NCBI RefSeq assembly: GCF_055900595.2
Contig: NZ_CM148325.1
Length of the DNA stretch: 64,000 nt
Strand: one strand, 5' to 3'
Shown here in pieces: positions 19,449-55,838 of the stretch; position 1 is the stretch's first letter; each line of letters opens with the position of its first letter. The position numbers and the translations under genes were made by a program. Under the pieces are notes generated by a model that was not told the DNA's origin, made no database searches, and saw only the letters and a list, made by a program, of their open reading frames with translations.

Positions 19449-20012
19449 TCAACGACTGCGCTTAGCGTGGCGCTCCCAGTTTTCTTGCTTTGCCTGCGCC
19501 GTTTTACGTAGTGCGACGTAACACGCCCCGCTGCCGCCATGATGCGGTAGCGCGGTACAATATGCCTGGACATCATCAAATTCGGTCAACCAGCACGCCA
19601 CATAGCTGCGGACAATATTGGCATGCGATTTATCTTCCCGCCCTTTACCATGAATAATCAGCACATTACGCAAACCATCCGCCAGGGCTTGTTGAATGAA
19701 ACTGAACACCATTTTGCGGCACTCTTCCACCGGCTGGCGCAAAAGATTCAGGCTCGCCTGTTGCGGATATTTACCACTGCGCAGCTTATCCAGCACCCCA
19801 TGTTGCAACCCTTCCCGCCGAAACTCCAGCAGCTGGCTTAGCGGGATGATGTCGAGAAATCCGGTGGTGAGGAAATTATCAAGTTGCAGCGTGTCGATAC
19901 GCTGCGGCGCACGTTGGTTACGCGTTGGATGCCAGTGGACATCTATAGCACGTTTCAGCGGCTGGACATCTTCCATGGCGTCAAGAAACAGCGATTTGTC
20001 GTCAAGGTTCAT
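19449..20012 (-). CDS. smrA: Smr-domain DNA endonuclease SmrA
   Basis: 187-aa ORF with Smr domain (LIIHGKGRE...). Confidence 0.85.
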   Translation of the reverse strand: MNLDDKSLFLDAMEDVQPLKRAIDVHWHPTRNQRAPQRIDTLQLDNFLTTGFLDIIPLSQLLEFRREGLQHGVLDKLRSGKYPQQASLNLLRQPVEECRKMVFSFIQQALADGLRNVLIIHGKGREDKSHANIVRSYVACWLTEFDDVQAYCTALPHHGGSGACYVALRKTAQAKQENWERHAKRSR

Positions 20013-20239
20013 GTTACATCCTCCCGCAATTAAGAGCGCGATATGATAACCAGACCGGGTCGGTCCAACAACGTATTACCCAAAATTCCAGTAATAAGTT
20101 CCAAATATTGCCGATATTTTAAGCAAAATGCTTATGCATGATTATTCATTCACGATATTAATAATGTAACTTATATTTTCGTGAAATCTGTCACTGAAGA
20201 AAATTGGCAACTAAAGGTTAAAACCGTTATAACACAGTC

Positions 20240-20333
20240 ACCGGCGCAGAGGAGACCATGCCGGATTTAAGACGCGGATGCACTGCTGTGTGTACTGTAG
20301 AGTCTGGCGGATGTCGACAGACTCTATTTTTTT
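20240..20333 (+). ncRNA. mcaS: McaS sRNA
   Basis: ACCGGCGCAGAGGAGACCATGCCGGATTTAAGACGCGGATGCACTGCTGTGTGTACTGTAGAGTCTGGCGGATGTCGACAGACTCTATTTTTTT matches my recollection of McaS; -35 TTGGCA (20204..20209) and -10 TATAAC (20228..20233) upstream; terminator hairpin plus T7. Confidence 0.8.
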
Positions 20334-20341
20334 ATGCAGTT

Positions 20342-21250
20342 TTAACTTTGCAGATAGCCGCATTCTCGCCGAAATTGCGTGATTAATGACGCGGTCAGTG
20401 GTGTCTGGCGACTATCACGCCGCTGAATCAAATAATAGGCCGCTTTCGGTAAAATTTCGCTAACCGGCAACATCACCAGCCCCTGTCCGTGCAAGGGATC
20501 GCAGCCCATTTCTTCAGGTAGTATGCTGAGAAAATCGCTTTTTGCCACCAGACTGATACAGGCTGAAAACGTCTCGCAGACTACGCCGACCTGTGGCGTT
20601 TGCGCCTGATCGTCAAGCAATTCACTCAACTGTTTGTAGTAGCTGCCGTGTGGCGTCGGCATTGTCCAGCTGTAGTCCAGTAACTGTTTGATCGAACGGG
20701 CACCAATGGCGGGATGTCCCGGGCGGCAAAAGATCGCGAATTGCTTTTCCAGTAATTTCTCAAAAGTAAATTCGTGGTCGTAGGGTCCCTGATAATAGGT
20801 ATTGATGGTGAAATCCAGTTCTCCCTGTCGCAATTCATTAATCATCGACACCAGTTGCCCTTCCATAATGCGTACTTTTACCTGCGGATGCTGCTGATGA
20901 AAACGAGATATGACAGCTGGCATCAGACTGCGGGAAATACTGGCCCCCATGCCGATATTAATTTGCCCTGCCAGTTGCCCTTGTCGTTGGCGAATATCCT
21001 CTTGCGCTGCGCGCAGCTCTTCAAGAATAAGACTGGCGTGCTGATAAAAACTTTCACCGGCATCAGTTAACGTCACGCCTTTACTACGGCGAAAAAAGAG
21101 TTGCGCCGCTAACCCTTCTTCCAGCTCCTGAATAGATTTACTCAGTGCCGGTTGCGACATATTCAACATGCGGCTCGCTCCGCGAATGCTGCCCTGACGA
21201 GCCACTTCAACAAAAGCCCGAATTTGATGAATTTTTACCTGAAAAGCCAT
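20342..21250 (-). CDS. abgR: LysR-type regulator AbgR
   Basis: 302-aa ORF with N-terminal HTH (LNMSQPALSKSIQELE); divergent from abgA. Confidence 0.9.
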   Translation of the reverse strand: MAFQVKIHQIRAFVEVARQGSIRGASRMLNMSQPALSKSIQELEEGLAAQLFFRRSKGVTLTDAGESFYQHASLILEELRAAQEDIRQRQGQLAGQINIGMGASISRSLMPAVISRFHQQHPQVKVRIMEGQLVSMINELRQGELDFTINTYYQGPYDHEFTFEKLLEKQFAIFCRPGHPAIGARSIKQLLDYSWTMPTPHGSYYKQLSELLDDQAQTPQVGVVCETFSACISLVAKSDFLSILPEEMGCDPLHGQGLVMLPVSEILPKAAYYLIQRRDSRQTPLTASLITQFRRECGYLQS

Positions 21251-21425
21251 GACGCCACCGATAACCGTTATTTATCAGACCAAAGAAACTGGCATCTACT
21301 TTAATGCAGATGATTGTGTCAGGGTAATTTATGAACGGTTAAAACTGTGAAAAATCAGTTAGTGATAAGTAAAAACTATCGCTACGTGAACCGGGTCACA
21401 CTTTTTACTGATGACGGGAAAGGTT

Positions 21426-22736
21426 ATGGAGTCTTTGAATCAATTTATTAATTCGCTTGCCCCAAAATTATCGCACTGGCGACGTGATTTTCACCACTAT
21501 GCAGAGTCTGGCTGGGTGGAATTCCGCACTGCTACCCTTGTTGCGGAAGAATTCCACCAGCTCGGTTATTCACTGGCGCTGGGCCGCGAAGTCGTTAATG
21601 AAAGTAGCCGGATGGGATTACCTGATGAATTCACTCTACAACGCGAATTCGAGCGCGCTCGTCAACAGGGGGCGCTAGAACAATGGATTGCGGCTTTTGA
21701 AGGCGGTTTCACTGGCATCGTCGCTACCCTGGATACCGGTCGCCCCGGTCCAGTGATGGCTTTCCGTGTCGATATGGACGCGCTGGATCTCAGTGAAGAA
21801 CGGGATGTCAGCCATCGCCCCTATCGCGACGGTTTTGCGTCATGTAACGCCGGAATGATGCATGCCTGTGGTCATGATGGACATACCGCCATTGGGCTTG
21901 GGCTGGCGCATACCTTTAAACAGTTCGAGTCCGGACTACATGGCATCATCAAACTGATTTTTCAACCTGCAGAAGAAGGTACGCGTGGCGCGCGGGCGAT
22001 GGTCGATGCAGGAGTAGTGGATGATGTTGATTATTTTACTGCTGTGCACATTGGCACTGGTGTACCTGCGGGCACAGTAGTGTGCGGCAGTGATAATTTT
22101 ATGGCAACCACCAAATTTGACGCGCACTTCACCGGGACCGCCGCTCACGCAGGCGCAAAACCAGAAGACGGTCACAATGCCTTACTGGCGGCAGCACAAG
22201 CAACTCTTGCGCTGCATGGAATCGCCCCGCACAGCGAAGGGGCTTCCAGAGTAAACGTGGGCGTTATGCAGGCAGGAAGCGGTCGTAATGTGGTTCCTGC
22301 CTCGGCGTTGCTGAAAGTGGAAACACGCGGGGCCAGCGATGTCATTAATCAATATGTTTTTGACCGTGCACAACAAGCGATTCAGGGCGCAGCAGCCATG
22401 TATGGTGTCGGCGTTGAAACTCGGCTGATGGGTGCAGCTACCGCCAGTTCTCCTTCGCCGCAATGGGTCGCATGGTTACAAAGCCAGGCGGCTCAGGTCG
22501 CGGGGGTCAATCAGGCCATTGAACGTGTTGAGGCGCCTGCGGGTTCCGAAGATGCCACATTAATGATGGCCCGCGTGCAGCGACATCAAGGGCAAGCCTC
22601 CTATATGGTGTTTGGCACACAGCTGGCGGCAGGTCATCACAACGAAAAATTCGATTTTGACGAGCAGGTTCTCGCTATTGCCGTCGAAACGCTGGCGCGC
22701 ACCGCGCTTAATTTTCCCTGGACGCGAGGTATCTGA
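21426..22736 (+). CDS. abgA: p-Aminobenzoyl-glutamate hydrolase subunit A (M20 peptidase)
   Basis: Track ORF 21411..22736; start moved to MESLNQFIN (436 aa). Confidence 0.9.
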   Translation: MESLNQFINSLAPKLSHWRRDFHHYAESGWVEFRTATLVAEEFHQLGYSLALGREVVNESSRMGLPDEFTLQREFERARQQGALEQWIAAFEGGFTGIVATLDTGRPGPVMAFRVDMDALDLSEERDVSHRPYRDGFASCNAGMMHACGHDGHTAIGLGLAHTFKQFESGLHGIIKLIFQPAEEGTRGARAMVDAGVVDDVDYFTAVHIGTGVPAGTVVCGSDNFMATTKFDAHFTGTAAHAGAKPEDGHNALLAAAQATLALHGIAPHSEGASRVNVGVMQAGSGRNVVPASALLKVETRGASDVINQYVFDRAQQAIQGAAAMYGVGVETRLMGAATASSPSPQWVAWLQSQAAQVAGVNQAIERVEAPAGSEDATLMMARVQRHQGQASYMVFGTQLAAGHHNEKFDFDEQVLAIAVETLARTALNFPWTRGI

Positions 22737-40556: not shown

Positions 40557-41555
40557 ATGTCCCCTACTATTTATGATATTGCCAGGGTTGCCGGCGTATC
40601 AAAATCCACCGTATCACGCGTGCTGAATAAGCAAACCAATATCTCCCCGGAAGCGCGCGAAAAAGTGTTACGGGCCATTGAAGAATTACAGTATCAGCCA
40701 AATAAACTGGCCCGCGCGCTGACCTCTTCGGGCTTTGATGCCATTATGGTGATTTCTACCCGCTCGACCAAAACTACGGCGGGTAACCCGTTTTTCTCCG
40801 AAGTTTTGCATGCCATTACCGCCAAAGCGGAAGATGAGGGTTTCGACGTGATATTGCAGACGTCGCACAACCCAGCTGAAGACTTACAAAAATGTGAAAG
40901 CAAAATTAAGCAGAAAATGATTAAAGGCATTATTATGCTAAGTTCGCCAGCAGATGAGTCTTTTTTCGCCCAACTCGATAAATACGATATTCCGGTGGTA
41001 GTAATTGGCAAAGTTGAAGGTGAATATGCCCATGTTTATTCTGTCGATACCGATAATTTTGGCGACAGTATTGCGCTGACCGATGCATTAATTGAAAGTG
41101 GACATAAAAATATTGCCTGCCTACATGCTCCGCTTGATGTCCATGTTTCGGTTGACCGCGTTAATGGTTATAAGCAAAGTCTGGAAGATCATAATATTGC
41201 AGTGCGCAATGAGTGGATCGTTGACGGCGGTTATACCCATGAGACAGCACTGCAAGCCGCGCGGGAATTATTAAGCCAGTCACCGTTGCCTGAGGCAGTG
41301 TTTGCTACTGACAGCCTGAAATTAATGAGCATTTATCGTGCGGCGGCAGAGAAAAACATTGCTATTCCGCAGCAGTTAGCGGTGGTGGGTTATAGTAATG
41401 AAACGCTGTCGTTTATATTAACGCCTGCACCGGGCGGCATCGATGTTCCGACGCAGGAGTTAGGTCAACAAAGCTGCGAGTTATTATTCCGCTTAATTGC
41501 CGGAAAACCGTCACCACAAAATATTACCGTTGCCACGCATATGTCGTTGAAATAA
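40557..41555 (+). CDS. ycjW: LacI-family regulator YcjW
   Basis: 332-aa ORF with N-terminal HTH ([21 protein letters not shown]). Confidence 0.9.
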
Positions 41556-41665: not shown

Positions 41666-42571
41666 TCAGAACGCGTAATTCACACCGACACCTGCATAAT
41701 GGAATTTATCGCTGTCGCCTTCATCGTGATCCTGCCACTCAAACGCGTATTCCAGCGAAACGGAAAGACCATTCTGGAAATCATAACCGTAAAACAAACC
41801 AAGACGGTTAAAATCATGGCCTTCACGTTCGATATCATCCTGCCAGTCCCAGTTACTCCAGCGATCCAACCCAATGCGCGTATACGGTGTTACCGAGTGA
41901 TTGCCGAGCGTCAGCGGTAAATAGGCGCGAATTTCTTGCGTGGAGAATTCACCGTTATTGCGGCTGTCGTCCATATTGAAGCCGCGCTCGAGATAATAGT
42001 TCACTCGCAAGGCAACCGTTTCGTTGAAGGTATATTGCAGACCCGTTTCCGTTTCGACACGGGTATCAGCATAACCGGTTGTATTCAGATCGTTGGCAAA
42101 TTTATACATCGACAGCCATCCGTTGAAACGTAAATCGTCAGTCAGTTTCACATCCCAGTCTGGCGCGATTTTCCAGCGCTGCATATTTGCCGTGTCTTTA
42201 CCCGGTTCATCAACATAGTGATAACCATAGTTACGGAAACCACCGGTCAGGCCGAAACTGAAATCATCGCTTTCGAGAAACTGATAATGCACTTCGAGTT
42301 CCGGGCGATCAAACCAGTTTCCACGTTTACCCGCGCTATAATCTACCGGCCCTTCCTGGTAATAAGCCAGCGATATTCTCCACGGCCCATTGGCAGCATT
42401 AAAATAGACGGAAGGCTCCGCCAGCCCGTCCATATCTTCGCCATAACCCTCGACGTTTTCTATTTCGTACATCGCGCCGATATTAAAGTGCCAGTCGTTT
42501 TTTTCCTCAGCCTGTGCGCAGGCCATTCCCGCACACATCACCAGTGCGGTACAGGGTAATAACTTTTTCAT
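41666..42571 (-). CDS. ompG: Outer membrane porin OmpG
   Basis: 301-aa ORF with signal peptide and C-terminal aromatic residue (…VNYAF). Confidence 0.9.
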   Translation of the reverse strand: MKKLLPCTALVMCAGMACAQAEEKNDWHFNIGAMYEIENVEGYGEDMDGLAEPSVYFNAANGPWRISLAYYQEGPVDYSAGKRGNWFDRPELEVHYQFLESDDFSFGLTGGFRNYGYHYVDEPGKDTANMQRWKIAPDWDVKLTDDLRFNGWLSMYKFANDLNTTGYADTRVETETGLQYTFNETVALRVNYYLERGFNMDDSRNNGEFSTQEIRAYLPLTLGNHSVTPYTRIGLDRWSNWDWQDDIEREGHDFNRLGLFYGYDFQNGLSVSLEYAFEWQDHDEGDSDKFHYAGVGVNYAF

Positions 42572-42616: not shown

Positions 42617-43699
42617 TTAGCGAATTGCTATTTCCGTTTCTGCATCAAAGAAATGACATTTGGTCATATCAAAATGAATAGTGATATTTTCTCCTGCATG
42701 ATAATCATTTAACGCACCAGCACGGACCACTAACTCGTGCCCCCCAACCGTGGTGTAGAGCATAAATTCCGCACCGGTTAATTCTGCCACGCTAATTTTG
42801 GCGGAAATGTTATTTTCCTCTTGCGCATCCGGATGAATATCTTCCGGGCGTATTCCCATCACGATGGGCTTATGCAAGCTTTCCTGCGTTTTCAGAACCG
42901 CTAATTTATCTTCGGGAATGGTTAATTTAAGCGTTTCCGTAACGAATTTATCGCCATCGATCGTGCCGCGAATAAAATTCATTGCTGGTGACCCAATAAA
43001 GCCGGCAACAAACATATTCGCCGGTTGGTTATAGACCGTTTTCGGCGCACCGACCTGCTGAACAATCCCATCCTTCATAATGACAATCCGCGTCGCCATG
43101 GTCATCGCTTCGGTCTGATCGTGGGTCACGTAGATCATGGTGGTGTTCAGTTTCTGATGCAGCTTGCTGATTTCCGCGCGCATTTGTACGCGCAGCTTGG
43201 CATCCAGGTTAGAGAGCGGTTCATCCATTAAAAACACGCCCGCTTCGCGCACAATCGCCCGTCCAAGCGCCACACGCTGGCGTTGCCCGCCGGAAAGCGC
43301 ACCCGGCTTGCGTTTCAGGTACTCACGCAGGCCAAGGATTTGCGCCGCCCAGTTAACCCGCTCATCTATCACCTCTTTGGCGATTTTTTGCATCTTCAGG
43401 CCAAACGCCATGTTGTCGTAGACCGTCATATGCGGATACAGCGCGTAGTTCTGGAACACCATCGCAATATTGCGCGCTTTGGCCGGAACGTCGTTCATTC
43501 GTTTGCCGTCGATCAACAGATCGCCGCCGCTAATCTCCTCAAGCCCGGCAATCATACGCAGCGTCGTCGATTTACCACAGCCCGACGGGCCGACAAATAC
43601 AATGAACTCTTTATCGGCAATTTCCAGGTTGAAGTCCTTCACCACATGCACCTGGTTATCGTAGATTTTTTGAATATGTTGTAACGAAAGCTGTGCCAT
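42617..43699 (-). CDS. ycjV: ABC transporter ATP-binding protein YcjV (MalK-like), full length
   Basis: 360-aa ORF with Walker A GPSGCGKST, signature LSGGQ and Walker B FLMDEPLS; intact here, whereas I recall a truncated pseudogene in K-12. Confidence 0.85.
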   Translation of the reverse strand: MAQLSLQHIQKIYDNQVHVVKDFNLEIADKEFIVFVGPSGCGKSTTLRMIAGLEEISGGDLLIDGKRMNDVPAKARNIAMVFQNYALYPHMTVYDNMAFGLKMQKIAKEVIDERVNWAAQILGLREYLKRKPGALSGGQRQRVALGRAIVREAGVFLMDEPLSNLDAKLRVQMRAEISKLHQKLNTTMIYVTHDQTEAMTMATRIVIMKDGIVQQVGAPKTVYNQPANMFVAGFIGSPAMNFIRGTIDGDKFVTETLKLTIPEDKLAVLKTQESLHKPIVMGIRPEDIHPDAQEENNISAKISVAELTGAEFMLYTTVGGHELVVRAGALNDYHAGENITIHFDMTKCHFFDAETEIAIR

Positions 43700-43712: not shown

Positions 43713-44372
43713 CTATACGTTTTGCCAGAAGGCCGATAACCGCGGCCAGGTCAGAGATTCCGTTGAGGGCAGCAACAGTTGCGCCCCGGTTAAGCTCGTG
43801 CCGATCCCCACCGAGCGCATACCGCTGGCGTTAATGGCGTCAATACCCGCCTGCGCATCTTCAATGCCAATGCAGGCCTGTGGAGGCACGCCCAGCCCTG
43901 CACAGGCGGCGAGAAAGATTTCCGGGTCCGGTTTCGAGTGTTTAAGTTGGGAAGCGTCCGCGCAGAAGGTGAAAAACTCGCGCAGCTCCAGCGCCGCTAA
44001 AATTGTTGGGGCATTCAGGGAGACGGAGGCCAGCCCTACCGGGATGCCTTGCGCCCGAAGATCTGCCAGCAAAGGCCGAATTCCCGGCAGAACAGCGTTA
44101 ACCGTCAGTTCGCGCAGTGAGTGGACGTAGAGCAGATTTTTGCGATACGCCAGTTGCGCCCGCTCTTGCACGTTAAAGTCGCCCTCTTTGCCCCCGTGTT
44201 GCAGAATGCGTCGCAGGGACTCATCGCGGCTGATCCCTTTTAACGTCTCGTTAAATTGCACATCGATGCCGATGCCGATTTCGGCAGCAATCTGCTGCCA
44301 TGCCTGGAAGTGCAGATGTGCGGTGTCGGTGATCACGCCATCCAGATCGAAAATTACCCCTTGTAGTTTCAT
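43713..44372 (-). CDS. ycjU: Beta-phosphoglucomutase
   Basis: 219-aa ORF with HAD motif I ([12 protein letters not shown]). Confidence 0.9.
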
Positions 44373-44388
44373 TCATCCTCTTGATGCG

Positions 44389-44402
44389 TGGTAGCGGTCC
44401 CA
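44389..44402. promoter_or_regulatory. Putative LacI-family (YcjW) operator, copy 2
   Basis: Minus strand TGGGACCGCTACCA, identical to the 14-mer upstream of ycjM; inside the ycjT 3' end, 17 to 30 nt upstream of the ycjU ATG. Confidence 0.45.
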
Positions 44403-46267
44403 TTGAAGGGCAAAATAAAATCACCCAAACAGAAAACAGACTCTTCAGTCACGGAAATAAGCTGACCGTTCAACCGCAGTGAAACGGGCGCAGAAGTTCG
44501 AATCGCAATACGCTGCGCGTCGAGAGTGACCTGTAATTCGCAGCCCTGCCAGAACAGAGGGAAAGACAACTGTTGCCACTGCTCAGGTAACGCCGGATTG
44601 AGAAGTAATTCGCCGTCGCGCACGCTGACTCCGGCAAAACCCTGAATCGCGCCCAGCCAGATAGCGCCAGTTGCGGCAGCGTGGATACCGTCATCACAGC
44701 TATGCGGATCAGCACCGAGATCGATTTCACTCCCCTCGCGCCAGAACGGGTAACTCTGCGCAAGCAAGCCACAACGCGCGGCAACAATGCCGTGGATCGC
44801 TTTACTCAATGACGAGTCGTGAATGGTGCGCGGTTCATAAAATTGCAGATTGGCGAGACAAGAGGCCGCTGAAAATTGTTCCGGTAGCATGTAATTGAGC
44901 ATCACTACATCGGCCTGCTTGAGGATCTGCATCTCGTTCACTTCTGCGCGTGAATAATCCAGCAGAATGGTTTGCTTCCCGGCCGCCGCTTTGTATTTCG
45001 CCAGATCTATCGCCGGTTTCGCCATAAACGAATCATCCTGCGGCAAAACGCCGTCGGGCTGAATTTCTGGCATCCACAGCTCTTTGAGGAACATGTCGGC
45101 ACGATGAATAAACGCGTCGTCGCTACAGCAAAACTGGCGAGCAATATTCAGCGCCTGTTGGACGTTGTAGCAGGCCATATAACTGGTGTATGCGTTATTA
45201 TTAACGTGTTCGGTATATTCGTCTGGCCCAATAACATCATGAATTTCCAGGCGGTCGTTAACCCTTACCGCACGGCTAATCCAGAACTTTGCGGTCTCCA
45301 GCAGTAGCGCCATGCCTTCGTGAGCGATGAAGCTTTCATCTCCCGTTACCTGCCAGTATTGAATAACCGCCCAGGCGATATCGGCAACCAGATGATGTTC
45401 TGCCTGCGCTGAGGCCACTTTTTGCCGCAGCCCGGTACGAATGTTAATGGCGGCAAATTCCGGCGTTTCTTCTTCGCCGCTACGTGCGCTCTCCCACGGA
45501 AACAGCGCGCCCTGCCAGCCATTGCGTCGCGCTTTCTCCTGCGCCCCTGGTAAGTTGTGCCAGCGATAGCGCAGCAAACTCCGGGCAATCGTCGGTTCGC
45601 TAAACAGATGGAACGGCAGCATGAACACTTCCGTATCCCAGAAAACATGGCCTTTGTAGCCTTCCCCGGTTAAGGCTTTTGCCGCAATGCTGCTACGCTC
45701 GTCGTGGGCGGGCGTCATAATACGCAAATGATAAAGCGCATAGTCTAACGCCCGCTGATCGTGCGTATCGCAACTCTTTACCGTGATACGACGTTTCTGC
45801 CACCATTGCTGCCAGTTTTCTGTCGATGCTGCAAGAAGTTGGTCATAACTCTGTTGTGTAGACATTTCGAGCTGGCGAAGCGACCCACTGCCCCACTCGT
45901 CTAAAGCGGCTTGTCGGTCGTCCCGCCAGTCAATCCACACCCGCTTTTGCAGGGTCAGTGTTTCACCTGTGCGAAGTTGCGTGCTGGTATGTTGCAGCAA
46001 ACGGCGCTCTTTTGCGGTATAGCACTGCTGAACGTCACCATCCGCCTGACAGTGACAACTGATGGCCACATCACTGCGCCCATCCTGGGTGGTGTAGATC
46101 CCCTGCATCAAATGCTGACCAAACACCCGCACCTGGGTTTCGTCAAGATGCTGGCGACCGTGGTTGGTTTGCGTGGCGTTAATGCCTGTTGAGATCAGCA
46201 CTGATGCCTCGGCGTCCAGCGGGGTAATACTGATTTCCAGCGCGATCAACGGCAGTTGATCTGTCGA

Positions 46268-46978
46268 AATAAATATCCTCCGGCATAGCCGGAGGTTTTT
46301 CAAATGCGCCTGTAAGGCTCTGTTACCAGCCGCGCCCTAACAGGCGCATACGATCTGACATTTGCATTCAACTTCGTTACTTACGGCCCGTAAACGGGCT
46401 GCCCGGATATGGAATCGATAACTGCTCCCCCATTTTATCCTCTTCAAGCTGGTGCTTTATGTAGTCCTGTATCTTCGCCGTGTTCTTACCCACCGTATCG
46501 ACATAGTACCCTCGGCACCAGAACTCCCTGTTTCTGTATTTGAATTTCAAATCCCCAAACTGCTCGTAAAGCATCAGACTGCTTTTCCCTTTCAGATATC
46601 CCATAAAGCCGGATACGCTCATTTTGGGTGGGATTTCCACAAGCATATGGATATGATCTGCGCAGCACTCTGCTTCCAGAATCCGTACGCTTTTCCACTC
46701 ACACAGCTTTCTCAAAATACTGCCTATCGCCCTACGCTTCTCTCCGTAAAACGCCAGTCTTCGGTATTTCGGCGCAAAAACTATGTGATATTTACAGTTC
46801 CAGCGGGTGTGCGCTAAGCTCTTTTCGTCCCCCATTGGGACCCCCTTTTGATTTCTTGTTTGACACTTGCAGTTGCCAGACCGCAAGGTGTTTTAACAAA
46901 TCAAAAGGGGTTTTAATAACTGGCTCAAAGCTGAAAGCTTTCCGGAACCCCCAGCCTAGCTGGGGGTTTTCTGTGCAC
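46268..46978 (-). mobile_element. IS200-type insertion sequence (IS200/IS605 family), about 711 bp
   Basis: Boundaries inferred from where ycjT homology stops and resumes (within a few nt). Upstream of tnpA: palindrome CCCCCAGC-ctag-GCTGGGGG (46943..46961) and a stem-loop overlapping the tnpA RBS. Downstream end: hairpin CCTCCGGC-ata-GCCGGAGG (46277..46295). Confidence 0.85.
46377..46835 (-). CDS. tnpA: IS200 transposase TnpA (HUH Y1)
   Basis: Track ORF 46377..46886; start moved to MGDEKSLAHTRWNCKYHIVFAPKYRR (152 aa); HUH motif (ADHIHML) and C-terminal Tyr region (RGYYVDTVG). Confidence 0.9.
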   Translation of the reverse strand: MGDEKSLAHTRWNCKYHIVFAPKYRRLAFYGEKRRAIGSILRKLCEWKSVRILEAECCADHIHMLVEIPPKMSVSGFMGYLKGKSSLMLYEQFGDLKFKYRNREFWCRGYYVDTVGKNTAKIQDYIKHQLEEDKMGEQLSIPYPGSPFTGRK

Positions 46979-47343
46979 AACAAAGCGACGACTTGCAAGG
47001 GTGAACCCTGCGCCGTCGCTCGTGCGCCAGATAACACTGCGGCGTAATTCTCCACTGGCAAAGTCAAGCTCACGCTGCCACGCTTCGCGGGATAACGAAA
47101 AAATCTCGCCGTTTAGGGTAATTTCCATTCCCACCACGTCTGGCAGATTCACCAGTTCGTTGATTTCACCTTTCCCGGCTCGATGATAAAGCCCTGCCAG
47201 ATACATGCCGCGCGTCTGCCGCGTGTAATCTTCTTCATGGCTGGCACGAAGCCCAAGATAGCCGTTTCCCTGCGCCATTAATGAGGCATATTTATTCAGG
47301 GTATGCTGGCTGAAATGGGGTTCCGTTAATGTTACTGGCCTGG

Positions 47344-48399
47344 TCATAATTCCACACGCGTCCCTGTTTCTGCGGATTGATACAGCGCCGCCACCAGTTG
47401 CTGGATGATGTACCCTTGCTCGGCGTCGGCAATCATCACTGGCTTGCCCTGTACGTGATTGATAAAGGCTTCCATGCTGCGCAAATGACGGTTGTCGTCG
47501 GCCAGTTCCCGTTGCATCAACGTCATTAATTCACCGTTGTTGTCGGTATAGATATGCGCCGGAAATAGCGTGGCTCCCGCTTTATCGCCGCAAAAGCTGA
47601 CGTTCATAATCGACTGTTCGCGGATGTTGAGTGCAAATGATGTCTCCAGCCAAAGAATGCCGCCGTTATGAAATTCAATGGTGCCAAACAGCGAATCTTC
47701 GACGCTGTAGGTTGCCGGGTCCCACTCGCCAAATTGACCACAGCTCTTTTGCGGGCCGATCTTTTGAAAGCTATGCGCATTCACGCTTTTCACTGCCGGA
47801 AAGCCCAGCACATACATCGCGGCATCCAGCATATGAATGCCGATGTCGATCAGCGGGCCACCGCCCTGCAGTTCTTTATTGGTAAAGACACCCCAACCGG
47901 GAACGCCGCAGCGACGCAGGGCGCGAGCGGTCGTCACGTAAATCTGACCCAAAACGCCGTTGGTCACCTGTTCACGCAGTTGTTGCGTATCAAGGGCAAA
48001 ACGATGGTGAAAGTCGTAGGCCAGCACCTTGCCCTGTTTGCGCGCGGTATCGCACATTTCCCGCGCCTGTTCTGGCGTCATGGCGGGCGGTTTCTCGCAC
48101 ATCACATGGCAGCCTGCCTCCAGCGCCATCAGGGTATGCTCGTAATGAAAACGGTTAGGTGAACAGACGCTTATCACGTCAGGTTTTACCGCCAGCAGCA
48201 TGGCCTGCGGATCGTCCCACACGGATGCGTTCCCGTATTTCTCTGCCAGCGCCTGCGCCTGGGAAAGGCGGCTGTCACAGACAGCCACCAGTTCCAGATC
48301 GTTGCGGGTGCAGTAGTACGAAGCATGAACCTTATCCGCCACCTGGCCCGCGCCTATTATCGCGACCCGCAGCGGAGAGCTTGTCATTGCACTTTTCAC
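47344..48399 (-). CDS. ycjS: Gfo/Idh/MocA-family oxidoreductase
   Basis: 351-aa ORF with Rossmann motif (VAIIGAGQVADKVH); stop overlaps ycjT start. Confidence 0.9.
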   Translation of the reverse strand: MKSAMTSSPLRVAIIGAGQVADKVHASYYCTRNDLELVAVCDSRLSQAQALAEKYGNASVWDDPQAMLLAVKPDVISVCSPNRFHYEHTLMALEAGCHVMCEKPPAMTPEQAREMCDTARKQGKVLAYDFHHRFALDTQQLREQVTNGVLGQIYVTTARALRRCGVPGWGVFTNKELQGGGPLIDIGIHMLDAAMYVLGFPAVKSVNAHSFQKIGPQKSCGQFGEWDPATYSVEDSLFGTIEFHNGGILWLETSFALNIREQSIMNVSFCGDKAGATLFPAHIYTDNNGELMTLMQRELADDNRHLRSMEAFINHVQGKPVMIADAEQGYIIQQLVAALYQSAETGTRVEL

Positions 48400-55026: not shown

Positions 55027-55040
55027 TGGTAGCGGTCCCA
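55027..55040. promoter_or_regulatory. Putative LacI-family (YcjW) operator, copy 1
   Basis: Minus strand TGGGACCGCTACCA, imperfect palindrome centred on CG, 13 to 26 nt upstream of the ycjM ATG; identical copy at 44389..44402. Confidence 0.45.
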
Positions 55041-55185
55041 TGAAGCGAGAGACTACTCCGCAGAAAATAAACTGTCAATTGAGCACAAGGGTTTTAGTCA
55101 CGCAGGAAATCATTTTTTACCAGGGAAAAAGCGTATTTGTGAGCTGACGCAAATAATCTATGGGGATGTAAATAAGGTGTGACAG

Positions 55186-55616: not shown

Positions 55617-55838
55617 TCACCTTTTATAACGCTGCGCCAGCTTATTGGCAGCCCGACTTAATAGCGGTTCCAGCGCCACAGCCAGCAACATTTTCAGCGG
55701 TCGGCGAGCAACTGATTTTATCGCCCAACCAGCCACACCCGCCGGGCCATAGCGCAGTGCGGTAAGAAGTACCAGCTTGCCTGCTAATTTGAAACCAGGC
55801 TTCACCTTTTGCCCGGCCTGTTGCCAGCGAGTATTCAT
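55617..55838 (-). CDS. pspD: Phage shock protein D
   Basis: Track ORF 55617..55850; start moved to [10 protein letters not shown] (73 aa). Confidence 0.85.

Follow-up and report, generated by a model that had tools for sequence, protein, structure and literature searches.

The 14-mer TGGGACCGCTACCA on the minus strand at positions 44389-44402 of the window, the whole 64-kb stretch of DNA that was analyzed, is almost certainly a genuine operator of the LacI-family repressor YcjW. We refer to this site as O2 and to the identical site upstream of ycjM as O1. Two papers, from 2019 and 2021, have reported YcjW binding between ycjT and ycjU; O2 is thus already known, and the initial annotation, which presented the site as a fresh lead, came after the 2019 report. 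The remaining question is narrow: why is another operator of equal strength present within coding sequence, 10 kb inside the operon? What the present analysis adds are counts of O2 conservation, the persistence of the site across genera, and the geometry of a -10-like hexamer next to it. Our tentative reading of these data is that the main role of O2 is the control of an internal promoter. Whether O2 serves an internal promoter or a roadblock, the answer would improve our picture of the regulon at a sugar locus that is not well understood, and would change no general principle.

In the window the minus strand carries pspE-ycjMNOPQRSTUV-ompG, and the plus strand carries ycjW. Gene identities were assigned using the annotated K-12 locus, that of the 99.9% identical E. 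coli Z0117EC0005, and Pfam. The first gene downstream of O2 is ycjU (pgmB; 43713-44372, minus strand), an intact β-phosphoglucomutase gene with HAD hydrolase domains. It is followed by ycjV (42617-43699, minus strand), which encodes an ABC transporter ATPase and is intact in the window but a pseudogene in K-12, and by the last gene of the operon, the intact ompG (41666-42571, minus strand), which encodes a monomeric large-channel porin. The kojibiose phosphorylase gene ycjT (GH65) is split by an IS200 element into a 5′ fragment (46979-47347, minus strand; Glyco_hydro_65N domain) upstream and a 3′ fragment (44369-46273, minus strand) downstream of the insertion. The repressor gene ycjW (40557-41555, plus strand) is intact, lies 2.8 kb from O2, and encodes a protein of 332 amino acids with Pfam LacI HTH and Peripla_BP domains. 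A link between the ycj sugar locus and H2S-mediated antibiotic tolerance has likewise been reported.

Exact copies of TGGGACCGCTACCA occur at only two places in the 64-kb window, 44389-44402 and 55027-55040, in agreement with the initial annotation. No exact copy is expected by chance, and none was found in 100 dinucleotide-preserving shuffles of the window (0/100). Both copies are on the minus strand, so that the 14-mer as written is the minus-strand sequence, and in this strain the identity between the two extends to 17 nt, ATGGGACCGCTACCACG; both details were omitted from the initial annotation. When up to three mismatches were allowed, six matches were found in the window against 4.2 expected, and the four additional three-mismatch matches were rejected as YcjW sites since their number is at chance level. 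One of these resemblances, TGGAACCGCTATTA, lies inside pspD (55659-55672, minus strand). It is about 120 nt upstream of pspE, whose expression reportedly depends modestly on YcjW. This motif-like sequence is present in Z0117EC0005 and absent from K-12, even with three mismatches allowed, and because of its absence from K-12 it is most likely a chance resemblance.

Read on the minus strand, O2 lies within the last codons of ycjT (AAT GGG ACC GCT ACC ACG), which are followed on the 3′ side by CAT CAA GAG GAT GAA TGA. The ycjT stop codon TGA (44371-44369) overlaps the ycjU start as ATGA, with the A of the ycjU ATG at 44372. O2 thus occupies positions -30 to -17 relative to the ycjU ATG, and the placement 17 to 30 nt upstream of this start codon that had been proposed is correct. 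O1 (55027-55040, minus strand) is located just downstream of the ycjM promoter, at -26 to -13 relative to the ycjM ATG (55014). The similar spacing of the two copies from a start codon, which had also been pointed out, holds to within 4 nt. The base preceding O1 and the first two bases of O1 form an ATG (55041-55039) located in the ycjM reading frame 27 nt before the annotated start codon, hence the listed ORF of 568 amino acids. This ATG is probably not used as the ycjM start because a Shine-Dalgarno sequence precedes the annotated ATG.

In the 14-bp sequence TGGGAC-CG-CTACCA, 10 of the 14 positions are self-complementary around a central CG, making the site an imperfect palindrome. An imperfect palindrome of 14-16 bp with central CG is the pattern of the family (PMC6599011). 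A hairpin formed by the mRNA at O2 was considered and rejected, as a 14-nt palindrome leaves no loop. The O2 14-mer is the same as that of the K-12 ycjU site and is also contained in the ycjM probe used for the published EMSA. Luhachack et al. (Nat Commun 2019; PMC6599011) derived the 14-nt motif, observed an EMSA shift of the ycjM probe containing TGGGACCGCTACCA, and found that kojibiose releases YcjW from DNA in vitro. In their ChIP-seq experiments with tagged YcjW in K-12, the two top peaks were upstream of ycjM and between ycjT and ycjU; YcjW was also found at cyaA and narP, where no clear regulatory effect was seen. Deletion of ycjW derepressed ycjM, ycjT, ycjU, and ompG (PMC6599011).

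A second study used ChIP-exo (Gao et al. NAR 2021; PMC8464067) and reported a YcjW site at 1378133-1378162 (NC_000913.2) that was assigned to ycjU. Its signal-to-noise value of 1665 is the highest of the listed YcjW ChIP-exo sites, with 840 for the ycjM site (PMC8464067). After conversion to NC_000913.3 by adding 1985 bp, the ycjU site covers the 14-mer through to the ycjU ATG. Because the 14-mer is identical to this ChIP-bound K-12 site, O2 can be equated with the published YcjW operator. The K-12 and window sequences are identical across the 14-mer and ycjW is intact, so O2 is the expected binding site in the window strain as well, the binding data being those obtained with the identical K-12 sequence. 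The suggestion that the 14-mer is operator-like is borne out by the palindrome with its central CG, the copy of the ycjM operator, the intact ycjW gene nearby, and the two K-12 ChIP datasets. The ChIP-exo peak assigned to ycjM (4306-4341 of the K-12 locus) is about 100 nt downstream of the 14-mer (4191-4204), inside ycjM. No motif-like sequence was found at the listed ChIP-exo coordinates for ycjM or at the weak ycjN site, and the offset of the ycjM peak may be a peak-calling artefact. RNA polymerase was not flagged at O2 in the ChIP-exo data, nor at ycjM (PMC8464067); its absence at ycjM too is attributable to the repressing conditions of the experiment. The words internal, roadblock, loop, and operator are absent from the 2019 text (PMC6599011), where the role of the second site is not discussed, as is the case in PMC8464067, and the main text of Ravcheev 2014 does not mention YcjW.

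To describe the conservation of O2 we used the ycjT/ycjU junction region, which is present in 4982 of 5426 complete E. coli genomes. The queries were 40 nt long, and each 28-nt seed word had to include the entire 14-mer. Exact-motif queries retrieved 1694 genomes with the K-12-type flank and 3219 with the ACN-type flank, which means that the exact O2 14-mer is kept in at least 4913 of the 4982 E. coli genomes that carry the region (at least 98.6%). The codon directly 3′ of O2 is polymorphic in E. coli and reads AAA, ACG, or ACA. Outside Escherichia, the whole locus including ycjW is syntenic in Citrobacter sedlakii, C. amalonaticus, and Salmonella enterica subsp. arizonae, and these organisms possess both operators and YcjW orthologues that are 82-86% identical. 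Both Citrobacter species have the O2 14-mer unchanged; S. arizonae differs from it at one position, as does a single Escherichia lineage. The codons flanking O2 have diverged in Citrobacter and S. arizonae, where YcjU is 72-75% identical, and the distance between O2 and the ycjU ATG is 17-18 nt in all four genera.

In a codon alignment, the 14-nt segment corresponding to O2 ranks 5th to 10th for conservation among 2230 ycjT segments of this kind. The C-terminal tail of YcjT that holds O2 has 42-53% amino acid identity versus ca. 71% for the whole protein. Four-fold degenerate sites in ycjT are ca. 42% identical between genera, and all four such sites inside O2 are conserved in Citrobacter. Since these four-fold sites are kept and the YcjT tail is otherwise poorly conserved, the comparison indicates that selection on O2 is acting at the DNA level and not only on the YcjT protein.

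Promoter-like elements were compared at both operators. The likely ycjM promoter (55050-55078, minus strand) has a -35 element TTGACA (55078-55073), a 17-nt spacer, and a -10 element TAGTCT (55055-50), and with a value of 12.6 on an approximate weight matrix it is the best-scoring promoter-like site of the locus. Its -10 element ends 9 nt before O1, which places O1 at roughly +3 to +16, a classical layout. A location of O1 after the predicted transcription start was also described earlier (PMC6599011). At ycjU the inferred -10-like element is TATTTT (44412-44417, minus strand), 9 nt upstream of O2. The best -35 element for this hexamer is poor (CTGTTT, 44439-44434, 16-nt spacer), and the candidate ycjU promoter scored 5.7 versus 12.6 at ycjM on this matrix, with ca. 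0.2% of positions scoring equally well. A consensus promoter scan returned nothing at O2 or O1 and also missed the TTGACA-17-TAGTCT arrangement at ycjM. The scan was therefore treated as insensitive and the weight matrix was used instead.

In Escherichia the 9-nt spacing between the -10-like element and the operator at ycjU equals that at ycjM. Furthermore, each lineage has a -10-like hexamer no more than 12 nt upstream of O2, although the encoded amino acids differ. The hexamer is TATTTT in Escherichia and C. sedlakii, GATAAT in C. amalonaticus, and TATATT in S. arizonae. The empirical p-values for this recurrence are 0.004-0.04 per lineage and ca. 5e-4 when three lineages are combined by Fisher's method, values that carry the caveats of an approximate matrix, an AT-rich stretch, and few lineages. 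The AT-rich stretch upstream of O2 may serve translation initiation of ycjU and not a promoter. No transcription start at the ycjT/ycjU junction is present among the listed entries of the Cappable-seq, SMRT-Cappable-seq (which has no ycj entries), Urtecho MPRA, and Reg-Seq 2025 datasets. The ycj operon is silent in wild-type laboratory cultures, and because of this repression under standard conditions we treat the missing start as uninformative and not as a negative result.

The preferred mechanism has a YcjW dimer on O2 acting locally on transcription of the distal genes ycjU, ycjV, and ompG. Most likely, the bound repressor would occlude a weak internal sigma-70 promoter with TATTTT as its -10 element, and the distal genes would keep their own YcjW- and sugar-dependent expression. 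The same dimer would in addition hinder RNA polymerase that comes in from upstream; these effects are compatible with each other. That ycjU-ycjV-ompG form a separately initiated, sugar-inducible sub-operon in which the -10 element was turned over between genera while the operator stayed fixed is possible, if somewhat short of probable. If the internal promoter is real, the YcjV ATPase and OmpG would be inducible independently of the upstream catabolic genes, and the distal genes would be buffered against polar lesions such as the recurring IS200 insertions in ycjT. The initial annotation held that an operator inside the operon implies separate control of the distal genes. Of this claim the operator part stands, being proven in K-12; a dedicated promoter is unproven but plausible, with an empty consensus scan and weak best -35 and -10 elements. 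An internal operator alone does not imply a separate promoter.

Published expression data bear on this point. According to qRT-PCR, deletion of ycjW derepressed ycjT ca. 22-fold, ycjU ca. 45-fold, and ompG ca. 40-fold (PMC6599011). There is thus an additional YcjW-dependent factor of ca. 2 across O2, which is small and is accommodated about equally well by a promoter and by a roadblock. A pBR322 clone with 395 bp of DNA upstream of ycjU complemented a ycjU::Tn5 mutant, but this could be due to read-through from the vector.

A pure roadblock is the main alternative; it accommodates the data nearly as well and is only somewhat less likely. O2 would then be promoterless, and YcjW, bound 9.9 kb into the transcription unit, would stop RNA polymerase that had evaded repression at the ycjM promoter, had come in from the psp operon, or had started spuriously within genes. 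The outcome would be extra-tight silencing of ycjU, ycjV, and especially of the large-channel porin OmpG. The position of O2 in a transcribed region, inside ycjT and without a convincing -35 element, fits this explanation, and so does the step of ca. 2-fold across O2 in the ycjW deletion mutant; the PurR roadblock in purB reportedly has a ca. 2-fold effect. The solved structures closest to YcjW are those of CcpA and PurR, and these two repressors act at intragenic operators. The leaky transcription around pspE and ycjM that Luhachack et al. suggested (PMC6599011) fits as well. What a roadblock leaves unexplained is why every lineage has a -10-like hexamer in the 12 nt before O2 in spite of amino acid turnover, and why the 9-nt spacing is the same as at the ycjM promoter. 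Furthermore, a roadblock could sit anywhere in the 10 kb, yet in four genera O2 is found at the same short distance from the ycjU ATG.

The PurR operator in purB and the CcpA cre sites in reading frames are LacI-family roadblocks. By analogy, O2 would share with them a dimeric LacI-family repressor, a single operator in a coding region, and a modest additional reduction of transcript. It differs in its position at a gene junction, with the promoter ca. 10 kb away, instead of a few hundred bp into the first gene, and in being accompanied by a -10-like element; roadblock action is putative at O2. If it does occur there, O2 would be remarkably far from its promoter for a LacI-family roadblock.

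It is very improbable that O2 is an auxiliary operator that pairs with O1 through DNA looping to strengthen repression of the ycjM promoter. Intragenic looping operators are known from lacO2 in lacZ and galOI in galE, whose distance to the main operator is ca. 100-400 bp and which depend on a LacI tetramer and on HU-assisted pairing of GalR, respectively. Like these, O2 is an additional operator located in one of the structural genes that the repressor controls, and a loop would suit an operon with two identical operators of high affinity that are both strongly bound in vivo. Unlike lacO2 and galOI, however, O2 is separated from O1 by ca. 10 kb (9,928 bp in K-12 and 10,638 bp in the window), far past the tens to hundreds of bp that are usual for LacI-family loops. 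In addition, the alignment of YcjW to LacI stops at ca. LacI residue 313, from which we infer that the 332-residue protein ends at the core domain and lacks the C-terminal tetramerisation helix. YcjW was also modelled as a dimer (Gao et al. 2021, PMC8464067).

Finally, that O2 is inconsequential, as a neutral or decoy site or as a coincidental repeat kept only by the YcjT protein sequence NGTAT, is extremely improbable: the motif does lie in coding sequence with conserved amino acids NGT-TT, and YcjW ChIP sites lacking a clear effect do exist at cyaA and narP (PMC6599011), but all four four-fold third positions are kept in Citrobacter against 42% elsewhere, the surrounding tail is poorly conserved, E. 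coli genomes that carry the region retain the site almost throughout (at least 98.6%), and an exact copy is not expected by chance. Chance or coding constraint alone is effectively excluded as an explanation for O2.

Compared with the K-12 YcjW operator pair (PMC6599011, PMC8464067), the window has the same 14-mer, the same position between ycjT and ycjU, the same partner at ycjM, and the same ycjW gene and operon. The window allele is ca. 90-94% identical to that of K-12, and the codon after O2 is ACG in the window and AAA in K-12. The window also differs from K-12 by a G-to-A change in the ycjU Shine-Dalgarno sequence, the split ycjT, and a frameshifted ycjQ. The Shine-Dalgarno sequence (44377-44382, minus strand) is AAGAGG, with the A at 44381, and AGGAGG in the compared loci (L001-L008 and L012-L015). 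The change at 44381, which is 8 nt downstream of O2, is synonymous in ycjT (CAG to CAA) and weakens the ycjU Shine-Dalgarno sequence; it is absent from these loci, which are 13 loci of Escherichia and its closest relatives, two of them labelled Pseudocitrobacter or Citrobacter. The frameshift in ycjQ results from a run of seven C residues (C7; 50071-50077, minus strand) that is C6 in the nearest relative Z0117EC0005, and may reflect either a genuine slippage mutation or an error of sequencing.

The IS200 element in ycjT (46274-46978, minus strand) is 705 bp long, has the same orientation as the operon, and is absent from K-12 and Z0117EC0005; its transposase was recognized by the Y1_Tnp domain (E = 1e-36). 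The listed tnpA ORF covers 46377-46886, with a start near 46835 inferred from the 459-nt tnpA of E. coli MB64. At the downstream end of the element, on the operon strand, there is a terminator-like GC-rich hairpin with a T-rich tail (46277-46295, minus strand). Judged from the sequence, strong polar effects on ycjU-ycjV-ompG are expected from this hairpin and from the untranslated 1.9-kb remnant of ycjT, a prediction that also draws on the general properties of IS200. Because IS200 and the terminator-like hairpin lie 1.9 kb upstream of the distal genes, any YcjW-regulated expression of ycjU-ycjV-ompG in the window strain would depend largely on the putative internal promoter. The initial annotation proposed that O2 could matter more in this strain because of the insertion. 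The insertion, its co-orientation, and the terminator-like hairpin were all found, but the greater importance of O2 follows logically only if the internal promoter exists. Moreover, with ycjT interrupted and inactivated and ycjQ frameshifted the pathway is already broken, and we gave this strain-specific point less weight accordingly. The locus looks as if it is decaying rather than being rewired, given the destroyed kojibiose phosphorylase, the frameshifted ycjQ, and the weakened Shine-Dalgarno sequence of ycjU.

Similar lesions occur elsewhere. In the unrelated E. coli MB64, a poultry isolate from Cuba, an IS200C copy is independently inserted in ycjT (L011, 3247-3960) ca. 75 bp from the insertion in the window, and ycjQ carries a different frameshift, a 2-bp deletion. 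A shared origin of the two IS200 insertions was rejected because of the ca. 75 bp between the insertion points. Together with the ycjV pseudogene of K-12, these lesions suggest that the ycj operon has decayed repeatedly and independently, and ycjT possibly holds a preferred target region for IS200.

The ycj region of the window (ca. 36500-59300, psp-ycj-tyrR) is ca. 90-94% identical to K-12 and ca. 4950 other E. coli genomes, and about 10 genomes are at least 99% identical over this region. For the abgR/abgA region (20000-22000), identity to most E. coli is 95-99%. The ycj allele is likely a recombinational import, as it is as diverged as the alleles of other Escherichia species. A contig labelled Pseudocitrobacter vendiensis carries a ycjT that is 98% identical, pointing to mislabelling or transfer. 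The genes of the ycj operon differ greatly in their divergence between genera: in the loci compared (L008-L010), YcjM, YcjT, and YcjU are 68-75% identical to the window proteins, the permeases YcjO and YcjP 94-98%, and YcjV ca. 89-90%.
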